Below, one piece after another: positions 6,293-58,405 of a stretch of 64,000 bases of DNA. Made by a program: the position numbers and the translations under genes. This DNA comes from Dictyostelium discoideum (taxonomy: Eukaryota). The stretch spans positions 8,352,001 to 8,416,000 of the forward strand of contig CM000151.3 of NCBI GenBank assembly GCA_000004695.1, written 5' to 3'. Under the pieces are notes generated by a model. That model made no database searches. It had not been told where the DNA came from and worked only from the letters and a program-made list of their open reading frames with translations. Each line of letters starts with the position of its first letter. Positions within the stretch are counted from its first letter, which is position 1.

Positions 6293-6358
<66 letters not shown>

Positions 6359-6607
6359 TTATATAGAGTACTGAGTGAATTATTGTATTTTTTGAAATGT
6401 TTGGGAAGTGCTATTGCGTGAAGAGGTGAGTTCCATTGTCTGCTAAATTGTAATAACTTTAGCGAGATTAGTGAGTCTAATTTATTTTGTTCTTCTGGCC
6501 GTTGCTTTGATTTGATTCTTAATGTTTTGTTAATAAACCGCAAATTAATATTGTTTTTTTTTTTTTTTAATAACATCACTCAATTTGAGTGTGTTCTAGG
6601 AGAGTTT

Positions 6608-6611
<4 letters not shown>

Positions 6612-6655
<44 letters not shown>

Positions 6656-7533
6656 CTTGTTATTCTTATTTTTTTTATTATTATTATTATTATTATATTA
6701 TTATTATTATTATATTATTATTATTATATTATTATTATTATTATATTATTATTATTATTATTATTCACAGCAAAGAAAAATGCACCTTTAAAGCAAATTT
6801 AAAGAAAAGTTGATTTAAATTGGATTTAAATTGAATTTAAAGCCGCGTTTAAAAAATTCATTTTTAAGGTAATTTTTAAGGTAATTTTTAAGATATTTAA
6901 AAATGCCTTTAAAATTTGCTTTAAAATAATTTTTTAAGCAATTTTAAAGGTGATTTTAAAGGTGATTTTAAAGGTGATTTTTAAGGTAATTTTTAAGATA
7001 ATTTTTAAGATATTTAAAAATACCTTTAAAATTTATTTTAAATTAATTTTAAATAGGATTTAAAGTAGATTTAAAGTAGATTTAAAGTGAATTTAAATTT
7101 CCTTTAAACATAAATTTAAGGTTTTTAATAAAAAAGATCTAATTTTAGAACAAAAAAATGGGGATAAAATATTCTATCATTTTTAAATTTTCATCAAAGC
7201 AATCAAATGGTGTAATGGTTGATGAGATTACCCTTTGATAGAGGGTCGGGGGATCGAATCCCTTTTGGTAATTTTTGAAAAATTAAAAAAAAAATTTTAA
7301 AAAATTTATCCGTTAAATAACGGCTTCGAACTCAGGACCTCGCTTTTAAAGCGATTAAAAAGGTAATTTTAAAGGTAATTTTAAAGGTAATTTTTAAGGT
7401 GATTTTAAAGTAACCTTAAAAATTACCTTTAAAATTACCTTTAAAATTGCTTTAATTCAGGACTTTAAAGCAAATTTAAATTTAATTTAAAGCGAATTTA
7501 AAGGTGGTTTTTCTTCGTTGTGTTGTTATAATT
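6612..7533. repeat. Repeat-dense region 3' of the TRE ORF2: tandem and inverted arrays of about 21-bp units (TTTAAAGGTAATTTTTAAGGT / GGTGATTTTAAAGGTGATTTT) flanking a tRNA-like fragment; bounded on the left by a T48 tract at 6612-6660
   Basis: Direct reading. Units recur in forward orientation at 6870-7000 and 7350-7410 and as reverse complements at 7410-7450, forming long imperfect palindromes. May be the terminal B/C-type module of the adjacent TRE element or an independent element. Confidence 0.5.
7201..7345. other. tRNA-derived fragments embedded in the repeat region. Plus strand 7201-7268 has a D-arm-like ATGGTGTAATGGTT, a perfect anticodon-type stem-loop ACCCT-TTGATAG-AGGGT and a T-arm-like GGGGGATCGAATCCC. 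Minus strand 7311-7342 has a B-box-like AGTTCGAAGCC, a CCGTTATTTAACGG hairpin and T-runs (Pol III terminator-like).
   Basis: Pattern recognition against the tRNA cloverleaf and B-box consensus GGTTCGANTCC. No acceptor stem or proper D-stem can be formed, so this is not a functional tRNA. Confidence 0.4.
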
Positions 7534-7556
7534 TTTTTTTTTTTTTTTTTTTTTTT

Positions 7557-10500
7557 TTATGAGTAGTTGGTGTTATATGAGCAGTATGGTATGAAGTGTT
7601 CCGGGATGTTTATGGTCATGAGTTTCGAGTTCCAGTTGTGGCTGAATTTTTCGAGTCTTCTTTTTATTGATGCGGTCCGATTGATTGACTCTCGGTTATC
7701 AGTGCATCTTAGTTCTTGACGTAGTTGTTTTTCTACTATCTTTCTTGTTCTATCCCATTCGGCATCTCTCGCTTTTTTGATTTTATGAATTATTTGGTTC
7801 TCTGTTATTATTGTAGTGTTATCGTTGAATTTTATTTGATTTCTTCTGTACCATATCGATTCCATAATGGCTCCTATCAGATTTGATGAGAATGGTGTGA
7901 GTAGTTTTCCGAGAACTTTTTCGCTCCATGGACCGTGGTAAGTGTTGTTGGAGTCTTTACAGACCTTTTGATAGATTGAGTCGATATTCTGTTTTATTGA
8001 TTTGCATTCGAAGAAGATGTGCATAGACGATTCTTCTTCTTTACATGAGTGGCAATTCTCCCCATGGTGTTTTGGAAGTGCCTTGAGTAGATATCTCCAT
8101 GCTAAGTCTCTTCCTTTGATAGTTGTGATTGATCTGGCTTCTCTAAATGGTAGAATTGGGTGATTAATGTTCTTTTGAATCAGTTTTTGACCTGTTGTTG
8201 GCTGGTGTTTGTTCCATCCCTTGTATTTGATATCCATCATGTTTCTATAGATTACTTTTAATTTTTGTTTGTTTTCGTATTTGGGTTTGACTTGGTTTAG
8301 TTTGAGAGTTATTCGCTCTCTTGGGTGGTGCAACAACTTCCAGGCTTTCCAGCATTTGATATGAATCCTTGATAGTGAGTTTTCTTTTTCCGACTTCCAG
8401 ACTTCCATATGTGGAGGGCAGTTCTGGTCGTCTTTTTCTCTGAGGTATTGTTCGTATATCCATGCTTTCTGGGCATTGGATCTGGTTGCCATATTCCAGA
8501 GTTCCAGGCCTCCAATTTCATAGTCTCTTCTGCTCCTTTCTTTTGAGATAGCCCACCTGTCCCCTTTGAATAACATGTTGGCATTAACGTTCTCCAGTTT
8601 CTTTATGTCATTTATTTCGTTGATGTATAGTTGGAATGTTAGTTGGGACAGGAGGTATGATTTGAGGATTGTGATTCTACCTTTTAGCGTTGATGACACG
8701 CTCGAGTAGCATTTTGTGAGGTTTTCCAGTTTGTTCACCGTATCATCTACTTTGCTTATTACACCTTTGCGGTTGAAGAAAAAGCCAAGATATCTTTCTT
8801 CTTCTTTCGCCCCAATTGTCTTATATTTGGTCTTTATCTTTGGGTTTTTAGTGATGCATACACATTTATTATCGTTTATTTTTGCTGCTGTGGCTTGGCA
8901 AAATTTTATAACTTTCATATCCATTTTATCTGCGTCATCTATGTTACTGGCTAGTGTGACTGTGTCGTCTGCATATTGTCCAATCTTCATCGAATTGTTC
9001 TGATTGAGTTTTATGCCTATTATGGTATTGTCTTTTCTTATTGATGTTGATAAGCATTCACATACTATAGCGAAGAGAGTTGGTGAAATTGGGTCGCCCT
9101 GTTTTGTACCTCTTCCTGCTCTGAAGGATTCAGAGAGTTGTCCATTTACCATGACCCTTATGTTGGTGTTCGTTAACATGCTTAGTATTGTGTTTGTTAT
9201 TTTCCGAGGGAACTTTAGATGGTTTAGAGTCCTTATTAACGCTTTATGAGATATTGAATCGAAGGCTTTTTCGAAGTCATAAAAGGTGATTATCGTGTTT
9301 CTATCACTCTTTTCCATTGCTAAATCCAAAGCTATAATGTTGTTGTGGAGTAGCCTTCCTGGTATAAAACCGTTCTGGTACTTTGAGATTATGTTTGGCA
9401 GGATTTTTAGTATTCTATTGTTGATTATTTTTGAGTAGATTTTGTAGTCTACGTTGAGTAACGTTATTGGTCTTCTGTTTGAGATTTCCAAGACATCCCC
9501 TTTACCTTTGTATATTGATGTAAGGATACCGTTCTTGAATTCTGTTGGAATTTCATTGTTTAAAAAGAAGTTGAATAGTTCTGTGAGGATTGGAATTAGT
9601 TTGTGTTGGTGGATTTTATAGAATGAAGATGTTATTCCATCTTCTCCTGGTGATTTACCTTCTGCTATCTTTTCTATTGCTAGCTTAACCTCATATTCTT
9701 CGATTCTGTCTTCCATCTCTGTTAATTTTTTTTTATCTATTGGTGGGTTCCAGGTGCTTAGAAGTTCTGTATGTGTTTCTTGGTCGCATTCTTTCTCTTT
9801 GAAGAGTGTCTCGTAATATTTTCTGAAGCAATCTGTTATTTCTTTTTGTTCTGTTTCGATTTCTCCATTGGATGGGTTCTTTATTCTGTGAATCTGGGAG
9901 CCCGAGTCTCTTTTTTTAAGAATAGATGTAAGGAGATTTGATGCTATTTCTTTATTGTTGATGTAGTTGATTGAGCTTTTGATCATTCTGTCTATTCTTT
10001 CTTCTTCTTGAAGTATTGTTATTTCGTTCGATATTGTTTCTTTTTCATATTTGTTTTTTGTTTTTGTGTGTTCATTTGCTAGATTTGATAGCGTTTTTTT
10101 TCTCTCTAGTATTCTTTTCTTTTCTGTTGTAATGCATTGTTTTTTTATTTTTTTTTTGAACTTAATCCAGTATTCCGTTATGTTAAGGTTTTTTCTTTTG
10201 GTTTCCTGGTAGTGGTCGATTATTTTTTCTATCTTTTTTATTGTTTTATCTTCTTTAATTATTATTGAGTTCATTTTCCATAGGGGTGATTTGTATATTT
10301 TTGTGAAATTTGGTATTTTGAAATCCATCACTACTATGTTATGGTCTGATTTGTTTATTTTATCTATTATCTTGTACGAGTGATTGAGTTGGTGCATCTT
10401 TGTTGATAAGAATGTTCTATCGATTAGTTTATCTTTGAAGGTTGTTTTAGTTGTTGAATTTGGTAGTATTTCGGTGAGTCCTACTTCCATCATTAGGAAT

Positions 10501-10988
10501 TCTATTGTTTCATTTTCTGTGAATTTTCTCTTATCGGATGATCCATCTTTGAACTTGATTTTTGCATATTTGTTGATGTTAAAGTCACCAGTAACTATGT
10601 CTGCCTGTTCTAGATCTTCAAGGGAAATATTGTTTGAAAACCATCCTTTTCTTCTGTCATATGAGGCTGGTGCATAGATGCAAATTATGTTGATTTCCAT
10701 ATTGTTTAGAATTGCAGTAAATTTTAAGATTCTGCCTTCTTTTTCTTCCAAGTTTTTAATTTCTATTTGTTCTAGGTGATTTATTGCCATTACTCCTTTT
10801 CCTCTTGCTTCTTTTCCTTTTCCTCCTGTTGAGTAATGGTTTTTGATTTGCGCTAGATTTTGATCCTTTTTTAGATTTGTTTCTGTTAGTATTGATATAT
10901 CAGGTTTTATTAGGTTAATTGTATTTTTTGTCTGATTCATGCTTTTGATTGTTGAGCAACCTTGGCAATTCCAGGTCATTATTTTTAT

Positions 10989-10991
<3 letters not shown>
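7557..10991 (-). CDS. Retrotransposon ORF2 polyprotein (1144 aa): APE-type endonuclease, reverse transcriptase, C-terminal Cys/His domain
   Basis: ATG at 10991. N-terminal L1/APE-like endonuclease (MTWNCQG...ILTETNL). RT motifs FIPGRLL...FYDFEKAFDSISH...QYADDTVTLA. C-terminal CHSC...HIFFECK zinc-knuckle-like domain. Confidence 0.9.
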
Positions 10992-11037
<46 letters not shown>

Positions 11038-11052
11038 TTTTTTTTTTTTTTT

Positions 11053-11090
<38 letters not shown>

Positions 11091-11096
<6 letters not shown>

Positions 11097-12446
11097 AAAT
11101 GAGACAGATGGAAGTATGTCTTGGAGTACTTTGGGCAATTTGTCTCTTAGTGCTGCTTCCATTAGATCTGATTCTTCCTTTGTTATTTTAGTTGGAGTTT
11201 TGTAAGGTGTTGATATTTCTTGGTGATTAGTTGTTGGGTTTGGAGATGAGTTGGATCTTTTTCTTTTTACTGTCTCTGGGGTTGCTGGAGATTCTGGATT
11301 TTGGATAGGTGACATTGTTTGTCTTTTTTTGATTGAGGCTAACCTTGGGGTTTCCTTCTTTTTTTGGTTATTTATTTTTTCTTCAAACATTCTGTTCTCT
11401 TCTTCATTTTCGAACATCTTTCTTACCACTTCTAATGCTTCTTCATCTTCAGTTAACTCCATTTTCCTTTTCTCTTTGCTGTCAACACTATATGTTACTG
11501 TTATTGGTGGGACACGAAGTACTTTTCTCTTTTCAATGTTGTTTATTGTGTTTGTCGTTTCTGTCGTTGTAGTTGCTCTAATTGTTGTGGGTTTTTTATT
11601 TTCAATTTCGTTTTCCTTTACTTTTTCGTTTTTGCTCTTGTCTTTGATGTTGTCATTTTTGATTTCTTTATTATTTTCTTTTCTGTTTTCTATTTTGTTT
11701 TTGTTGTTATTTTTTGATTCGCTAGTGTTTTTATGATTGGATTCTTCTTTTGATTTTATGTTTATTCTTGTGTTTTCCTTTATCTCGGGGTTTGGTAGTT
11801 CCGTGATTTTTGAATTTTCTGAGATTTCGTCTTCGATTTCCTTATTTGTTTTTCTTTGATTTTTTGTTTCTTCTGTTGTAGTGAGGAATAGTATTGTTAT
11901 GTGTTTACAATGTATTAGCTGGTCTTTGTGCTCTGGACTGATAATTGAGTTGAATGAGTGTATTATCAGGTTTTCACCTAAATTATCTAATTTGATTATT
12001 TCCAGTCCTTCTTCATGCAATGTTTTTTCTACTATGTCCATTGATTTTTCCCAGTTGAATGTTTTGAAGATCTTTTTTGGTTTTATTATTGCTCTGTGAA
12101 CTCCTTTTAGTACTCCGTTGAAAACGTTAGAGTACTTGATTACTTGAGTTCTGCAGTCAGTTAGGATTTTGAATTTATTCTTACTTATTATTATCTTATC
12201 ATCTCCTTGTAAATGAATTTCCAATTCTGCTTTTAAGTTGTTGGAAATCTCATCTGGGATATTGATCATGAATTTATATTGTTTTAGTTCAATTTGAGTG
12301 TGGTATATTGCTTCGCTTATTTTATCAAGTGTTCTGTACGTATTTTTTAAATATTTGAACTTTGTTCTGAGTTCATTTGATTTCTTGATTTTATCTGCCA
12401 ATGTTTCTGTTGATTCTGTCATTATTGTATTTGCCAATTTATTCAT
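11091..12446 (-). CDS. Retrotransposon ORF1 protein (451 aa), coiled-coil/basic nucleic-acid-binding protein
   Basis: ATG at 12446. Lys/Glu/Asn-rich, lies upstream of and on the same strand as the EN-RT ORF2. Separated from ORF2 by an A-rich spacer of about 95 nt (10992-11090). Confidence 0.75.
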
Positions 12447-12524
12447 TTCTTTTTTTTTCTTTAAAATCTTTATTCGACTTTAAAAATTTAAAATTCTGGA
12501 AATTCCCTGAAAGAATGTTTTCGG

Positions 12525-12588
<64 letters not shown>

Positions 12589-12591
<3 letters not shown>

Positions 12592-12862
12592 TCTTTTTTT
12601 TATATGAAAAATGAAATAATCAAATAAAAAAAGTGTTGTTGTTGATGTTTTTTCTCTTACTGATTATTTTTTCCTTTTTTTTTCAATTTTGCTTCGCAAA
12701 ATTTTCAAAAAAAAGAAAAAAATAAATTACAATAAAATAAAGAAATAAAGTAGTTTACTCTAAGTGTATTTTATTTTATTTTTTTTAAGTCTTTTTTTTA
12801 TATGAAAAATGAAATAATCAAATAAAAAAAGTTGTTGTTGATGTTTTTTCTCTTACTCATTA
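12589..12862. repeat. Tandem direct repeat with period about 198 bp (1.4 copies). A 72-bp block at 12589-12662 recurs at 12787-12858. Consistent with duplicated TRE5 A-modules at the element 5' end.
   Basis: Direct comparison: aagtcttttttttatatgaaaaatgaaataatcaaataaaaaaagt(g)ttgttgttgatgttttttctcttact present twice. The period matches the roughly 200-bp A-module length reported for TRE5-A. Confidence 0.7.
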
Positions 12863-12903: not shown

Positions 12904-12976
12904 GGGGATGTAGCTCAGATGGTAGAGCGCTCGCTTAGCATGCGAGAGGTAAAGGGATCGATACCCTTCTTCTCCA
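12904..12976 (+). tRNA. tRNA-Ala (anticodon AGC), 73 nt
   Basis: Cloverleaf: acceptor GGGGATG/CTTCTCC with the G3:U70 alanine identity pair; D-arm GCTC-AGATGGTA-GAGC; anticodon arm CTCGC-TTAGCAT-GCGAG (AGC); T-arm AAGGG-ATCGATA-CCCTT. One T6:T67 acceptor mismatch and an unusual A54, so it may be a slightly degenerate copy. An ex-B-box-like GTTCAATTCC lies about 33 bp downstream. Confidence 0.75.
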
Positions 12977-13006: not shown

Positions 13007-13020
13007 TGTTCAATTCCTAT
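13007..13020 (+). promoter_or_regulatory. Extra B-box (ex-B)-like motif downstream of the tRNA gene
   Basis: atgTTCAATTCCtat resembles the B-box consensus GGTTCGANTCC and sits about 33 bp 3' of tRNA-Ala, as described for D. discoideum tRNA loci. Confidence 0.45.
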
Positions 13021-13044: not shown

Positions 13045-13942
13045 ACATAGATATATTTCTTAGAGATTTATTAATACTTCTAAAGGTATTCATTTCCACT
13101 CAGCTATAATCAACTCTTCAACAACATACTGAAGATAAAAGACCCTAAAACAAGAGACACAATGTTTAGATTCCATGCCAGATGCCTTCCAATAAACTAC
13201 CTTCACAACAAACAATGCCCACTCTGCAAAGAAGATATGAGCAAAGACCCATACGGTCACCTGTTCTTCTCATGCAAGAAAACAAAACAATTCATAAAAA
13301 TAAATAAACTCAAAAATTTCATCTATATTACCACAGGCAAAGGTAAAAACTGGCACCATACAAGAATTAGGCAAAATAACAATTTCATTAATAGAATAAC
13401 TCCAAAATTATCACCGACAGCCAAAAAAGATCAAGAAGTGAATGCAGATTACGCCAACCACAGATTCCACAAAGAATACTTTGAATGGAACTATAAAGCA
13501 ATAGACTATGATCTAACCAGATCATTCGCATATAGAAACCTAATGGCCCTTATCCTCCACAACATTTGGATTTGGATTTGCAATCAAATATACAGTGAAG
13601 ATCCTTTAACAGATGAATCACTATCATACAGCTCCCTTCTAAAGAAATGGCACAAATTGGCCACTCTAGAATACATCAAAAAAGCAAAAGATCTGAAAAA
13701 CTTATCAGCAAAAGACCATAATAACTTCAAAGATCCTAAGATCCTTCTCACTTCAACGATCAAGCTAAGAAAAACAACAGCTAATTACTATTGTATTCCA
13801 GAATCATCTCTCCCAAATATTATATCTTTTGATCAATTCATATGATTAAAATAACCCTTCAGCTTAAATGATAAGCCTTTAAATAAATATTAAATAAAAC
13901 TCGTATTAACACAGATGGACATATATCAATCTTGTTAATCCA

Positions 13943-13980
<38 letters not shown>
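13045..13980 (+). mobile_element. 5'-truncated TRE3-type non-LTR retrotransposon fragment: ORF2 C-terminal Cys/His domain, about 90-nt 3' UTR and an A43 tail
   Basis: The reading frame is open from about 13051 through 13845. The ORF track starts at an internal Met at 13162. The CPLC...HLFFSCKK motif parallels CHSC...HIFFECK of the intact TRE ORF2. It lies about 70 bp downstream of tRNA-Ala in the same orientation, which is TRE3 geometry, and ends in poly(A) at 13938-13980. Confidence 0.7.
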
Positions 13981-13984
<4 letters not shown>

Positions 13985-55668: not shown

Positions 55669-58405
55669 CTCTTTTGAAAATAAAGAATTATATTTAGGTT
55701 CAGATAGTTTTATAAATACAACAAGTAAATGTTTAGAACCAGATCATCCATTATCAAAATATAGTTTAGGTATAAAAAGTGAAATTGAAAATAGCTTTAA
55801 TGGTTGGAGTAATAATCAACAAGAGAATTTTCAAAAGTTGGTTAATTATTTAAATGGTTTAGAGAGTGCAAGATTAAAGATTGAAAATTTTGATAATAAT
55901 GGTTTTAGAGATTTTAAATTAAAAACTGAAATATTTAAAGATGTTAACAATCTATTCGATTCAAAATCTGAAAATTTCGATATCCCATTAATCAATATAC
56001 AATTCTCATTTAATAGTTTATTTCAATCAATTAATTCAATTCATAATAGTTTTTCTTTTATCTTACAACAGCAAATTAAATTTAAAAGTCCAGTTTCATC
56101 TTTACAACCTGTATCACAACCAATTTCTAAACCAAGACCAACTTCTGTAATATTACAAAATCAACAACAGCAACAACAACAACAACAAAATGATAATAAT
56201 AATAATAATGTTCAAACAACACCTATTGTACCAAATAGACCAACATATAAGCCACCAATACAAAGACCATTGTCTACTAATTTAAATAATGTTAATAATG
56301 GTAATTCTAATGTTGGTAGTTTGAGAGCTGCACCTGCTCCTATTTCATCTTCAAATGTTGAACAACCACAAAAACCAGTTACACCAACATATAAACCACC
56401 AACCCAAAGACCATTATCAACAAATTTAAGTAGTGGTGTTGTGAGACCTGCTCCTATTCCTATTTCTACTTCAACTGAAGAACCACAAAAACCAGTAACG
56501 CCAACATATAAACCACCAACACAAAGACCATTATCAACAAATTTAAGTAATGGTGTTGTGAGACCTGCCCCTATTCCTATTTCTTCTTCAACTGAAGAAC
56601 CACAAAAACCAGTAACACCAACATATAAACCACCAACACAAAGACCACTATCTACAAATTTAAGTAATGGTGTTTTAAGACCTGCACCACCACCATCTAT
56701 AAATTCTACACCTACATCTTTACCTTCTCAACCCACACCTAATACATTTAAAAAACCAAATTATATAAAACCAATGCCAGCATCACAAGAACAACAACAT
56801 CAACAACAACAACAGCAACTACAACAACAGGAGCAGCAATCAATAAAACCTCAACCAACTCCATCTTTCCAACGTCCAACTCCATCTTTTAATAAACCAT
56901 CACCATCACCATCACCATCAACTCTTGCTCAACAAACACAAACAACAGACTTTCAACCTCAAAGACCCCCACCACCATCAATTCAACCTCAAAGACCTCC
57001 ACCACCATCAACTCAACCTCAAAGACCTCCACCACCATCAATTCAACAACAACCAGTTCCAGTTGATAATAGCTATAATAAAAATGAAAAGAAAAAGGAT
57101 TCACTATCACTTTTTGGAAAGAAATTATCAACAGCATTCAAAAGTTTGGATGTTTCAAGTGGTTCTAGTTCTGGAAGATCTTCAATGATGGGATTTGGAT
57201 TTCCTACTGATATGCTTGGTCCAAAACTTGAAGATATAGTAAATGATTTTGAATATCATAAAAAAAGTAAAGTATCTACATTTTTTTTTATTATTATTTT
57301 TATTATTATTATTATTTTTAATTATTTATTTTACTAATTTTTATTATTTTTTAGAATGGGATGGATATGGTAAAAGATTTAAATTGGTTAAAAAGTATAC
57401 ACAATCAATAAGATGGGTTGGCCATGGTAGTGCAAAGATTGAAAGTGGTAAACCAATTCCAAATCAATTGATTACAATGATTCTTACAACACCAATAACT
57501 ATGCAATCACAAGTGATAACCTATTCACAAGTTGAATTTAAAAATTCAAGAGGTAATGTCGTAACACCAACCATTGTTGAAATTCCAAATTCAGAGGTAT
57601 CCATTTATCAAGCAGATTTTCATGGTCCTCAAGAGTTTGATGAATTCTTTTGCGAGAACATTGTTGAGGCGGATTTATTCTCAATCAATTTGGAAGAGAT
57701 AAAGTCAACTCAGGAACAATCACCTTATGTTGAACCATTATCAGAGAAAGAGAATGAAATTTATTTAGTTTTTACACCAACTTTGAATTTTAATGAACCA
57801 GAGTTTGCACAATTTATTGAAAGAGAAGGATTATATCCTCAAATTGATGGAGCAAACCAACAACAAGAGACATTGTTATGTTTTGCCTATAGAGTTAGTT
57901 TATATATCAAATTACATATCTCTTATGAGATCAGTTGTGGTGATCAAAAACCATTGGTAACAATTAATAAAGGTTTAGGAAATTGTTCATCTTATTCAAA
58001 TCTATTCTGTTCAATTATGAGATATAATGGTATACCTTGTAGAATAGTTAGTGGTGTGGTTTCAAGAAAAAATAATGTCATTGATGAACCTCATGGTCAA
58101 AATGAATTTTATTTACCAAATATTGGTTGGATACCTTATAATGGTGCTGTAATGGGTGGTCCAAATGATAATTCAATCGCTTTTGCAAAATGTTTTGGTG
58201 ATCTTTACTCTTATATGATTGATACTCATATCAATTTAAGTTATGATCAACAATCTAAATCAGAACATACAGAGAGACAAAGTATTTGTGGTGAAATGGT
58301 ACCAACAAAATGTTATTTTCAACATGGTTCAACACCTTCTTTTGGTGCTCCTAAAAGTGAACATGAATTCACAAGAATTGATAATGGCGGAGTTTTAGAA
58401 TTTTA

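Follow-up and report, generated by a model that had tools for sequence, protein, structure and literature searches.

A probable MITE/foldback-like DNA transposon with a tRNA-gene-like core inside the 3' untranslated region of a TRE5-type retrotransposon of Dictyostelium discoideum

What is the repeat-filled block that follows the last open reading frame (ORF2) of a TRE5-type retrotransposon in Dictyostelium discoideum? The block lies at 6766-7522 of the window, by which we mean the whole 64,000-nucleotide stretch that was analysed (GenBank assembly GCA_000004695.1, contig CM000151.3, positions 8,352,001 to 8,416,000, forward strand). A preliminary description of this DNA left two answers side by side. 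The block could be a 3' terminal module of the retrotransposon that carries captured transfer RNA (tRNA) sequence, or it could be an element in its own right, standing where a second tRNA locus has decayed. We argue for a different answer. The block is most probably a non-autonomous cut-and-paste DNA transposon of the kind known as MITEs (miniature inverted-repeat transposable elements) or foldback elements. It would have inserted in the A/T-rich 3' untranslated region (UTR) of the resident TRE5-type element, and its core would be derived from tRNA genes. We put the probability of this reading at roughly 85%. The finding is an ordinary nested insertion, together with a corrected 3' end for the retrotransposon.

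The block as an inserted element

The first thing to establish is where the block begins and ends. Further copies were sampled solely through loci that hold the retrotransposon (TRE), 12 of them, several overlapping, about 186 kb in all. They gave one extra copy of the block. This copy is 760 bp long, is 98.4% identical to the one in the window and stands at a different site on chromosome CM142511.1 (locus L002, 7156-7915). In a three-way alignment identity starts and stops exactly at CACAG...CTGTG. A second assembly of the window locus (L001 and L010, 98.6-99.2% identical) also carries the block, at L001 7467-8224. Since the block recurs at 98.4% at an unlinked locus, it is more than a product of chance. 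Its parts in the window are these.

6766-7522, no strand: 757-bp non-coding element, probably a MITE/foldback-like DNA transposon; exact edges shared with the L002 copy
6766-6780, plus: distal terminal inverted repeat, CACAGCAAAGAAAAA
7508-7522, minus: terminal inverted repeat proximal to the TRE, CACAACGAAGAAAAA, with two mismatches to the consensus
7523-7524, no strand: left copy of the target-site duplication AA, from empty-site comparison with L002 and L003
6764-6765, no strand: right copy of the duplication AA, from the same comparison
6781-7100, no strand: long arm, made of 12-bp (AAGGTRATTTTW) and 11-bp (RATTTAAAKTR) units, direct and inverted
7101-7345, no strand: unique central core, with a GC content of 28-34% against 18-22% in the arms; it holds the tRNA-like material
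7346-7507, no strand: short arm of the same 12-bp and 11-bp units, including a 41-bp near-perfect hairpin at 7360-7453

The terminal inverted repeat is 15 bp long (CACAGCAAAGAAAAA ... TTTTTCTTTGCTGTG). The L002 copy has a perfect CACAGCAAAGAAAAA at both ends, and the window copy has two mismatches at one end. Outside the element this repeat is absent from about 250 kb, made up of the window and the loci, which partly overlap.

Each of the two insertions can be compared with an empty site. The window reads TTATAACAA, then the element, then AATAATAA, against an empty TTATAACAATAATAA in L002 and L003, which is a gain of AA. L002 reads GAAATCAA, then the element, then AAATAAAATTC, against an intact GAAATCAAATAAAATTC in the window, and the gain is again AA. 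The L002 block is within ORF2, between the equivalents of window positions 7838 and 7837, and this is 313 bp further upstream in the TRE than the window insertion. The window ORF2 is intact at this point. Downstream of the block in L002 the end of ORF2, the stop codon, A29, TTATAACAA and (TAA)n follow unbroken. The window and L002 are therefore mutual empty sites, and the UTR site is also empty in L003 and others. The NCBI gene model for ORF2 at L002 4001-8196 (P0002, 1027 aa) spans the 760-bp insertion; the nested element has apparently been annotated as an intron.

The inside of the block is just as orderly. Repeats of the TTTAAAGG type are dense from about 6780 to 7505 and stand in both orientations. 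All 11 occurrences of their core motif AAGGTRATTTTWAAGGT fall between 6866 and 7441; chance would give 0.03 in the window. The preliminary description was right that the block is built from tandem and inverted repeats. Its unit of about 21 bp has to be replaced by periods of 12 bp (AAAGGTAATTTT) and 11 bp (GATTTAAAKTR). TTTAAA is 11-fold enriched in the block and is phased every 11-12 bp, or about once per helical turn. The hairpin in the short arm has a folding energy of -56.6 kcal/mol (z -13.3). When the element is folded as a whole, its two ends pair, at -222.5 kcal/mol (z -16.9). MicroRNA (miRNA) precursors such as mir-548 were considered and rejected; the best Rfam match reaches 42.6 bits where the gathering score is 90. 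These matches, to miRNA hairpins that derive from MITEs, are generic look-alikes that reflect a long A/U-rich hairpin and nothing more.

There is no sign that the element encodes a protein. Its longest open stretch is 45 aa, and its six-frame peptides, from core and arms, have no match among 5.8 billion proteins. An exact 26-mer from the core has no match in the JGI metagenome contigs.

We assign the block to the MITE/foldback-like elements because it has exact edges, terminal inverted repeats, AA duplications, empty sites, no coding capacity, phased arms and the ability to fold back. Such an element would depend on an autonomous relative for its transposase, which would act in trans. This enzyme would bind the terminal inverted repeats and the subterminal 12-mers, excise the element and reinsert it with a 2-bp staggered cut. 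At the window locus the insertion has displaced the rest of the TRE 3' UTR by 757 bp, and this rest consists of the (TAA)n stretch, an A41 run, a 46-nt end with a stem-loop and the closing oligo(A).

The tRNA-like core

The next question is what the element carries. The core holds the following features.

7201-7271, plus: tRNA-like unit, with an A box (TGGTGTAATGG) at 7208-7218 (+8) and a B box (GGATCGAATCC) at 7251-7261
7263-7266 and 7272-7276, plus: T-runs of the tRNA-like unit, T4 and T5
7322-7332, minus: second, convergent B box (AGTTCGAAGCC; the L002 variant is AGTTCGAATCC)
7310-7323, minus: hairpin past the minus-strand B box, then T6 and T10 (A-runs at 7299-7304 and 7285-7294 of the plus strand)

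Both tRNA-like motifs that had been reported on the plus strand are present, a stem-loop ACCCT-TTGATAG-AGGGT at 7230-7246 and GGGGGATCGAATCCC at 7248-7262. The B-box-like motif that had been reported on the minus strand is likewise there, and so are the hairpin and T-runs that go with it. The idea that the TTGATAG loop comes from a tRNA-Ile(GAU) of mitochondria or bacteria has nothing in its support and was dropped.

By the detectors, by its fold and by its overall similarity, the core is neither a tRNA gene nor a recognisable pseudogene. ARAGORN calls no tRNA here at default settings, and the unit appears at the 80% threshold alone. The Rfam tRNA model (RF00005) scores 12.4 bits at 7201-7271 and 13.6 bits in L002, against a threshold of 29. 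The unit forms no cloverleaf, and it folds no better than shuffled sequences (z -0.4). Compared globally with nine D. discoideum tRNAs, it is no more similar to them than unrelated tRNAs are to each other. The earlier tRNA-like call fails with the detectors and stands for the architecture of A and B boxes.

That architecture is worth considering in its own right. In D. discoideum the A box has the form TRRYNNARYNG and lies at +8, and the B box follows at a distance of 30-60 bp (PMC5391098). The A box of the core is exactly +8 from the start of the tRNA-model match. The gap from A box to B box is 33 bp, against 33-35 bp in the real tRNA genes of the loci, and the B box is followed by oligo(T), the T4 and T5 runs at 7263-7276. 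This is the layout of a type-2 promoter of RNA polymerase III (Pol III). Allowing at most one mismatch to the B-box consensus GGTTCGAANCC, there are two sites in 64 kb, at 7251-7261 (plus) and 7322-7332 (minus), where 0.79 are expected. Both are in the core, and they are convergent and 71 bp apart. In its 3' half the core is also similar to the tRNA-Lys(UUU) T arm and acceptor, with a local z of about 6. All of this tRNA-like material is present, nearly identical, in the L002 copy on another chromosome.

Across the same 250 kb or so, the combination of A box and B box is found at tRNA genes, at every occurrence of the element, at two other sites and nowhere else. One of these two sites is at 58289-58335 of the window (plus strand, TGGTGAAATGG ... 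GTTCAACAC), with a 27-bp gap and a T-run nearby. The other is at 9526-9583 of L005 (plus strand, TGGTACAATAG ... GTTCGAAAC), with a 38-bp gap and without a T-run. Both are probably chance matches, and judged by their motifs they could be orphan A/B-box loci.

The most likely source of the core, as its motifs suggest, is degenerate DNA derived from tRNA genes and carried as transposon cargo. We consider tRNA genes the probable source because the A box at +8, the B box at 33 bp, the T-runs and the convergent B box are all kept. The core plausibly comes from the 3' ends of two tRNA genes that stood tail to tail. This DNA would have been captured from the ends of such genes, and any foldable tRNA would since have been lost. 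What is left would be a cassette of A box, B box, T4 and T5 that faces a second, convergent B box with T-runs of its own.

One can also suppose that the likeness to tRNA genes is coincidental. The element would then be a plain MITE, with A and B boxes that have neither tRNA ancestry nor function. A model score of 12.4-13.6 bits where 29 is the threshold, the silence of ARAGORN at default settings, a fold energy equal to that of shuffles and a global similarity at the level of unrelated tRNAs are all what this scenario predicts. It does not account well for two near-consensus B boxes within 71 bp when 0.79 are expected in 64 kb. Nor does it account for a stringent A box exactly at +8 with the spacing of a tRNA gene and T-runs adjacent. 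The tRNA-like motifs are moreover concentrated in a GC-richer island of an element with 22% GC. We regard coincidence as unlikely, though a serious alternative to tRNA ancestry.

A bolder claim can be made in the other direction. The element could represent an uncatalogued D. discoideum MITE family whose core would be a still-functional entry site for TFIIIC and Pol III, with an A box, a B box, a terminator and a convergent solo B box. We think this distinctly unlikely.

Some points weigh against our preferred reading of the block as an inserted MITE-like element with a core from tRNA genes. About 0.5 tRNA-model matches at 12.4-13.6 bits are expected per 64-kb window. Given this low score and the missing cloverleaf, it is the promoter-motif architecture that argues for a tRNA origin. 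The 2-bp duplication and any target preference are read from two sites, one for each independent copy, both of them AA and both in an A-rich context. The L002 insertion was observed in a single assembly. No autonomous partner or transposase was identified, and no search aimed at a partner was made.

The host retrotransposon and its 3' end

If the block is an insertion, the retrotransposon must have another 3' end. The parts of the host and its target are listed here.

7557-12860, minus: body of the host TRE5-type retrotransposon, of the class without long terminal repeats (non-LTR); 5' UTR 12447-12860, ORF1 12446-11091, ORF2 10991-7557
7532-7556, minus: A25 run inside the TRE 3' UTR, immediately behind the ORF2 stop; not the tail of the element
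6554-6763, minus: displaced remainder of the TRE 3' UTR, contiguous with the end of ORF2 in nine other TRE copies
6656-6763, minus: (TAA)n-rich stretch of the 3' UTR, (TTA)n on the plus strand
6615-6655, minus: A41 of the 3' UTR, T41 on the plus strand
6569-6614, minus: 46-nt unique end of the TRE, containing a stem-loop at 6572-6595
6554-6568, minus: terminal oligo(A)15 of the TRE
12904-12976, plus: tRNA-Ala(AGC), the gene that the TRE targeted; the two stand head-to-head, with 44 bp between the TRE and the tRNA 5' end

The TAA stop of ORF2 at 7557-7559 does abut A25, as had been described, and this is seen as a T-run at 7532-7558 of the plus strand. What does not survive is the idea that A25 is the tail of the retrotransposon. 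An A-run after the stop is common to L002, L003 and L005-L012. The canonical 3' UTR runs from the stop through an A-run, TTATAACAA, (TAA)n, a second A-run and (T)ACAAATAAACTCTCCTAGAACACACTCAAATTGAGTGATGTTATT to an oligo(A) of 12-15, and the flanks of the TRE copies diverge past this terminal oligo(A). Eight further copies (L003, L005, L006, L007, L008, L009, L011 and L012) have this UTR uninterrupted, with no block within 4-10 kb. Therefore A25 is an internal A-run, and the TRE ends at about 6554. In the window ORF2, with its stop and A25, is split from the rest of its own 3' UTR by 757 bp.

The T tract that had been given as T48 at 6612-6660, and as the end of the block, is a T41 at 6615-6655. 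The block has its sharp edge at 6766, and the (TTA)n at 6656-6763 and the T41 both belong to the TRE 3' UTR.

The true end of the TRE has a structure of its own. The stem-loop at 6572-6595 (ACACACUCAAAUUGAGUGAUGU) has an energy of -9.2 kcal/mol (z -4.1) and comes a few bases before the terminal oligo(A). The same conserved stem-loop is found at about 7624-7647 of L003 (z -3.1). A copy from a diverged subfamily (L004, 86% identical) keeps the order of A-run, (TAA)n, A-run, unique part and oligo(A). Its unique part is different, and there is no significant fold at the position of the stem-loop. The host stem-loop is reminiscent of the hairpin in the 3' C-module of TRE5-A, which TRE5-A requires for retrotransposition (PMC3159450).

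Directly beyond the oligo(A), at 6298-6553 on the minus strand, is a 193-bp unique segment followed by A63 (T63 at 6298-6360 of the plus strand). L008 has this segment too, at 9236-9415 and about 330 bp past the point where another TRE ends, with 95.6% identity over 181 bp and again a long A-run behind it. The segment appears to be the 3' end of another poly(A) retroelement, one that stands in tandem and has lost most of its 5' part.

On the minus strand, ORF1 of the host (12446-11091, 451 aa) stands ahead of ORF2 (10991-7557, 1144 aa). ORF2 matches the Pfam domain RVT_1 at 128 bits and has a weak N-terminal match to Exo_endo_phos. It is 100% identical to an NCBI D. discoideum protein across the aligned part, and its cluster has 39 D. 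discoideum members. Alignment with other copies puts the 5' end of the TRE at about 12860.

TRE5 elements are non-LTR retrotransposons that stand head-to-head about 48 bp upstream of tRNA genes, and the host stands in this way before tRNA-Ala(AGC). Five other copies are head-to-head about 33-45 bp upstream of tRNA-Asp, tRNA-Arg, tRNA-Cys, tRNA-Phe and a second tRNA-Ala; the copies at this distance include L002, L005, L006 and L007. The same distance and orientation hold for all TRE copies, full or truncated, that have a called tRNA gene adjacent. By its position the host is a TRE5 element.

Its family name is likely TRE5-B, assigned by description. This name is likely because the host has TRE5-like tRNA targeting, and because TRE5-B alone among the TRE5 families is described as lacking the C-module (PMC3159450). 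Like TRE5-B, the host has two ORFs, with an apurinic/apyrimidinic endonuclease (APE)-like domain and a reverse transcriptase, and faces tRNA genes head-to-head from about 33-45 bp upstream. Its 3' end likewise appears to have nothing like a C-module and no duplicated B-module. When the TRE is aligned to the window, no copy of the 5' UTR is seen at its 3' end, and A-runs, (TAA)n and the 46-nt unique end make up the roughly 250 nt of the 3' UTR. The 757-bp block sets the locus apart from TRE5-B and is itself no part of the retrotransposon.

Two scenarios keep a closer tie between the block and its host. In one of them a single insertion occurred in a TRE master copy, the block then hitch-hiked by retrotransposition, and in one descendant it made a local hop of about 313 bp. 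Both copies of the element are in the last 6% of the same TRE family and in the same orientation relative to the TRE, and cut-and-paste elements often reinsert locally. Both are thus in the 3' part of TRE5-B-like elements, and no insertion preference can be claimed from this because both were found through sampling of TRE loci. The scenario needs the site that the element left to have been restored without a trace, with the AA duplication gone as well. It also needs a MITE-bearing shared ancestor, and this is unsupported since the two host TREs are 98.4% alike, against 98.3-99.6% identity to element-free TREs. We consider hitch-hiking followed by a local hop very improbable. In the other scenario the block is a genuine 3' module of the TRE, either of the B/C type or from a 3' transduction with tRNA capture, copied along with the retrotransposon. 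The block does stand, when read on the element strand, between the ORF2 stop with A25 and a long run of A, and the C-module of TRE5-A is thought to have been acquired by 3' transduction (PMC4559204). The empty sites nevertheless refute a TRE module and leave it barely credible, as the 3' UTRs of eight copies lack the block, L002 has it at a different position, in ORF2 and with its UTR intact, and the block has inverted termini and a 2-bp duplication of its own.

The last alternative is that a second tRNA locus decayed in place here and that TTTAAAGG units multiplied around it in the manner of a microsatellite. It has for it the A/B-box-like motifs and T-runs at 7201-7332 and the abundance of short tandem repeats in Dictyostelium intergenic DNA, and it is next to impossible to sustain when the core and both arms recur with the same edges and 98.4% identity in a TRE ORF2 on another chromosome, and when the window site is a broken, otherwise conserved TRE UTR. 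The tRNA-like core is not a decayed resident gene because it travels with the element to that other chromosome. The second answer of the preliminary description was thus correct that the element is independent, and the second tRNA locus it proposed is mobile cargo that is also found in L002.

The other end of the host shows features of its own. The TRE 5' UTR has a direct duplication of about 90 bp (12571-12661 and 12769-12862) that is A-module-like, with its copies about 200 bp apart. At 2092-2988 of L007 there are about five tandem repeats of the TRE 5' unit ahead of ORF1, with a spacing of roughly 199 bp. Between the duplicated 5' units of the window is a homopolymer of about 60 T at 12529-12588 (plus strand; an A-run on the element strand). 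Many differences between the window and the second assembly are homopolymer lengths.

On the far side of the tRNA target there is a B-box-like motif, GTTCAATTC, at 13008-13016, 32 bp downstream of tRNA-Ala. External B boxes are described for Dictyostelium tRNA genes, and this motif resembles them. Past 13016, on the plus strand, a 5'-truncated retroelement fragment extends to 13981, with a 227-aa ORF (13162-13845), a zinc-finger-like CPLCK motif and A34 at 13948-13981. Placement of this ORF in the same TRE family was rejected, as nucleotide comparison shows no similarity to the TRE5 host. With no likeness at the DNA level, the fragment presumably belongs to a TRE3-type element that stands downstream of tRNA-Ala.

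Known relatives and significance

The element is of a known kind, and its family may already have a name. Like MITEs and foldback (FB-type) elements, it has short inverted repeats at its termini, duplicates a short target site and lacks coding capacity. It also shares with them short tandem units in both orientations, a strong hairpin of the whole element and clean empty sites at unlinked loci. Its length of 757 bp is large for a MITE. It differs from these elements in its 2-bp AA duplication and in carrying a tRNA-gene-like core. The duplication is TA for Stowaway and Tc1 and 9 bp for FB, and neither is like the AA seen here.

Another candidate is the CACTA/En-Spm (CMC) group. Here too there is a likeness, with termini that begin in CAC, 12-bp subterminal motifs both direct and inverted, and a very short duplication. 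The terminal inverted repeat of En/Spm is CACTACAAGAAAA, and Mirage-type members make 2-bp duplications. CACTA elements proper are defined by CACTA termini and a 3-bp duplication. The termini of our element are CACAG and its duplication is 2 bp, so it departs from CACTA elements in both respects. No CMC-type transposase came to light, and no search was aimed at one.

Closer to home, Glockner et al. reportedly described DDT-S, thug-S and thug-T in 2001 as small DNA-transposon families. The element has in common with them its host species and its putative kind. Putative DNA transposons of D. discoideum are given as complex repeats, with Thug at 0.1% and DDT at 0.9% of the genome, and Dictyostelium DNA transposons reportedly have transposases that are unlike any known (PMC5633606). 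The repeat thug-S occurs in many copies, forms hairpins and is a source of miRNAs (PMC6161686, PMC4894637). Its miRNA (miRNA_can_D3, UAUGGCUGCUGAAAUUAAUGUGG) is absent from the window even when as many as 3 mismatches are allowed, and none of nine loci has an exact match. The element is not thug-S as defined by the miRNA hairpin, because this miRNA is absent. The literature on thug-T and DDT-S yielded no sequence information. The element is possibly identical to DDT-S or thug-T.

The core has a parallel of a different sort. Loci of A and B boxes without a tRNA context, in the ribosomal DNA (rDNA) palindrome of D. discoideum, are experimentally known as targets of TRE5-A (PMC5391098). The core resembles these loci in its TRRYNNARYNG A box, its B box at 30-60 bp, its oligo(T) and the lack of a functional tRNA. 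It differs from them in that its B box has A and not T at position 2 (GATCGAATC), as does that of the window tRNA-Ala (GATCGATAC). It differs also in that its cassette rides on a mobile DNA element, and in that neither copy has a TRE integrated about 48 bp upstream of the cassette.

What does this mean for Dictyostelium? The anatomy of the locus is corrected. A TRE5-B-like 3' UTR is a composite of about 250 nt that closes with a conserved stem-loop and an oligo(A). Should the cassette be inactive, the rest is a routine nested insertion. If it is active, a DNA transposon with A and B boxes would couple two transposon classes. Were the core a functional entry site, a mobile DNA transposon would seed new sites for Pol III complexes. 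It could create landing pads for TRE5 and TRE3 retrotransposons, and it could drive Pol III transcripts beside the 41-bp hairpin as a source of small RNA. The interest that remains is in an A/B-box cassette on a DNA transposon, in a genome whose retrotransposons home to such cassettes.

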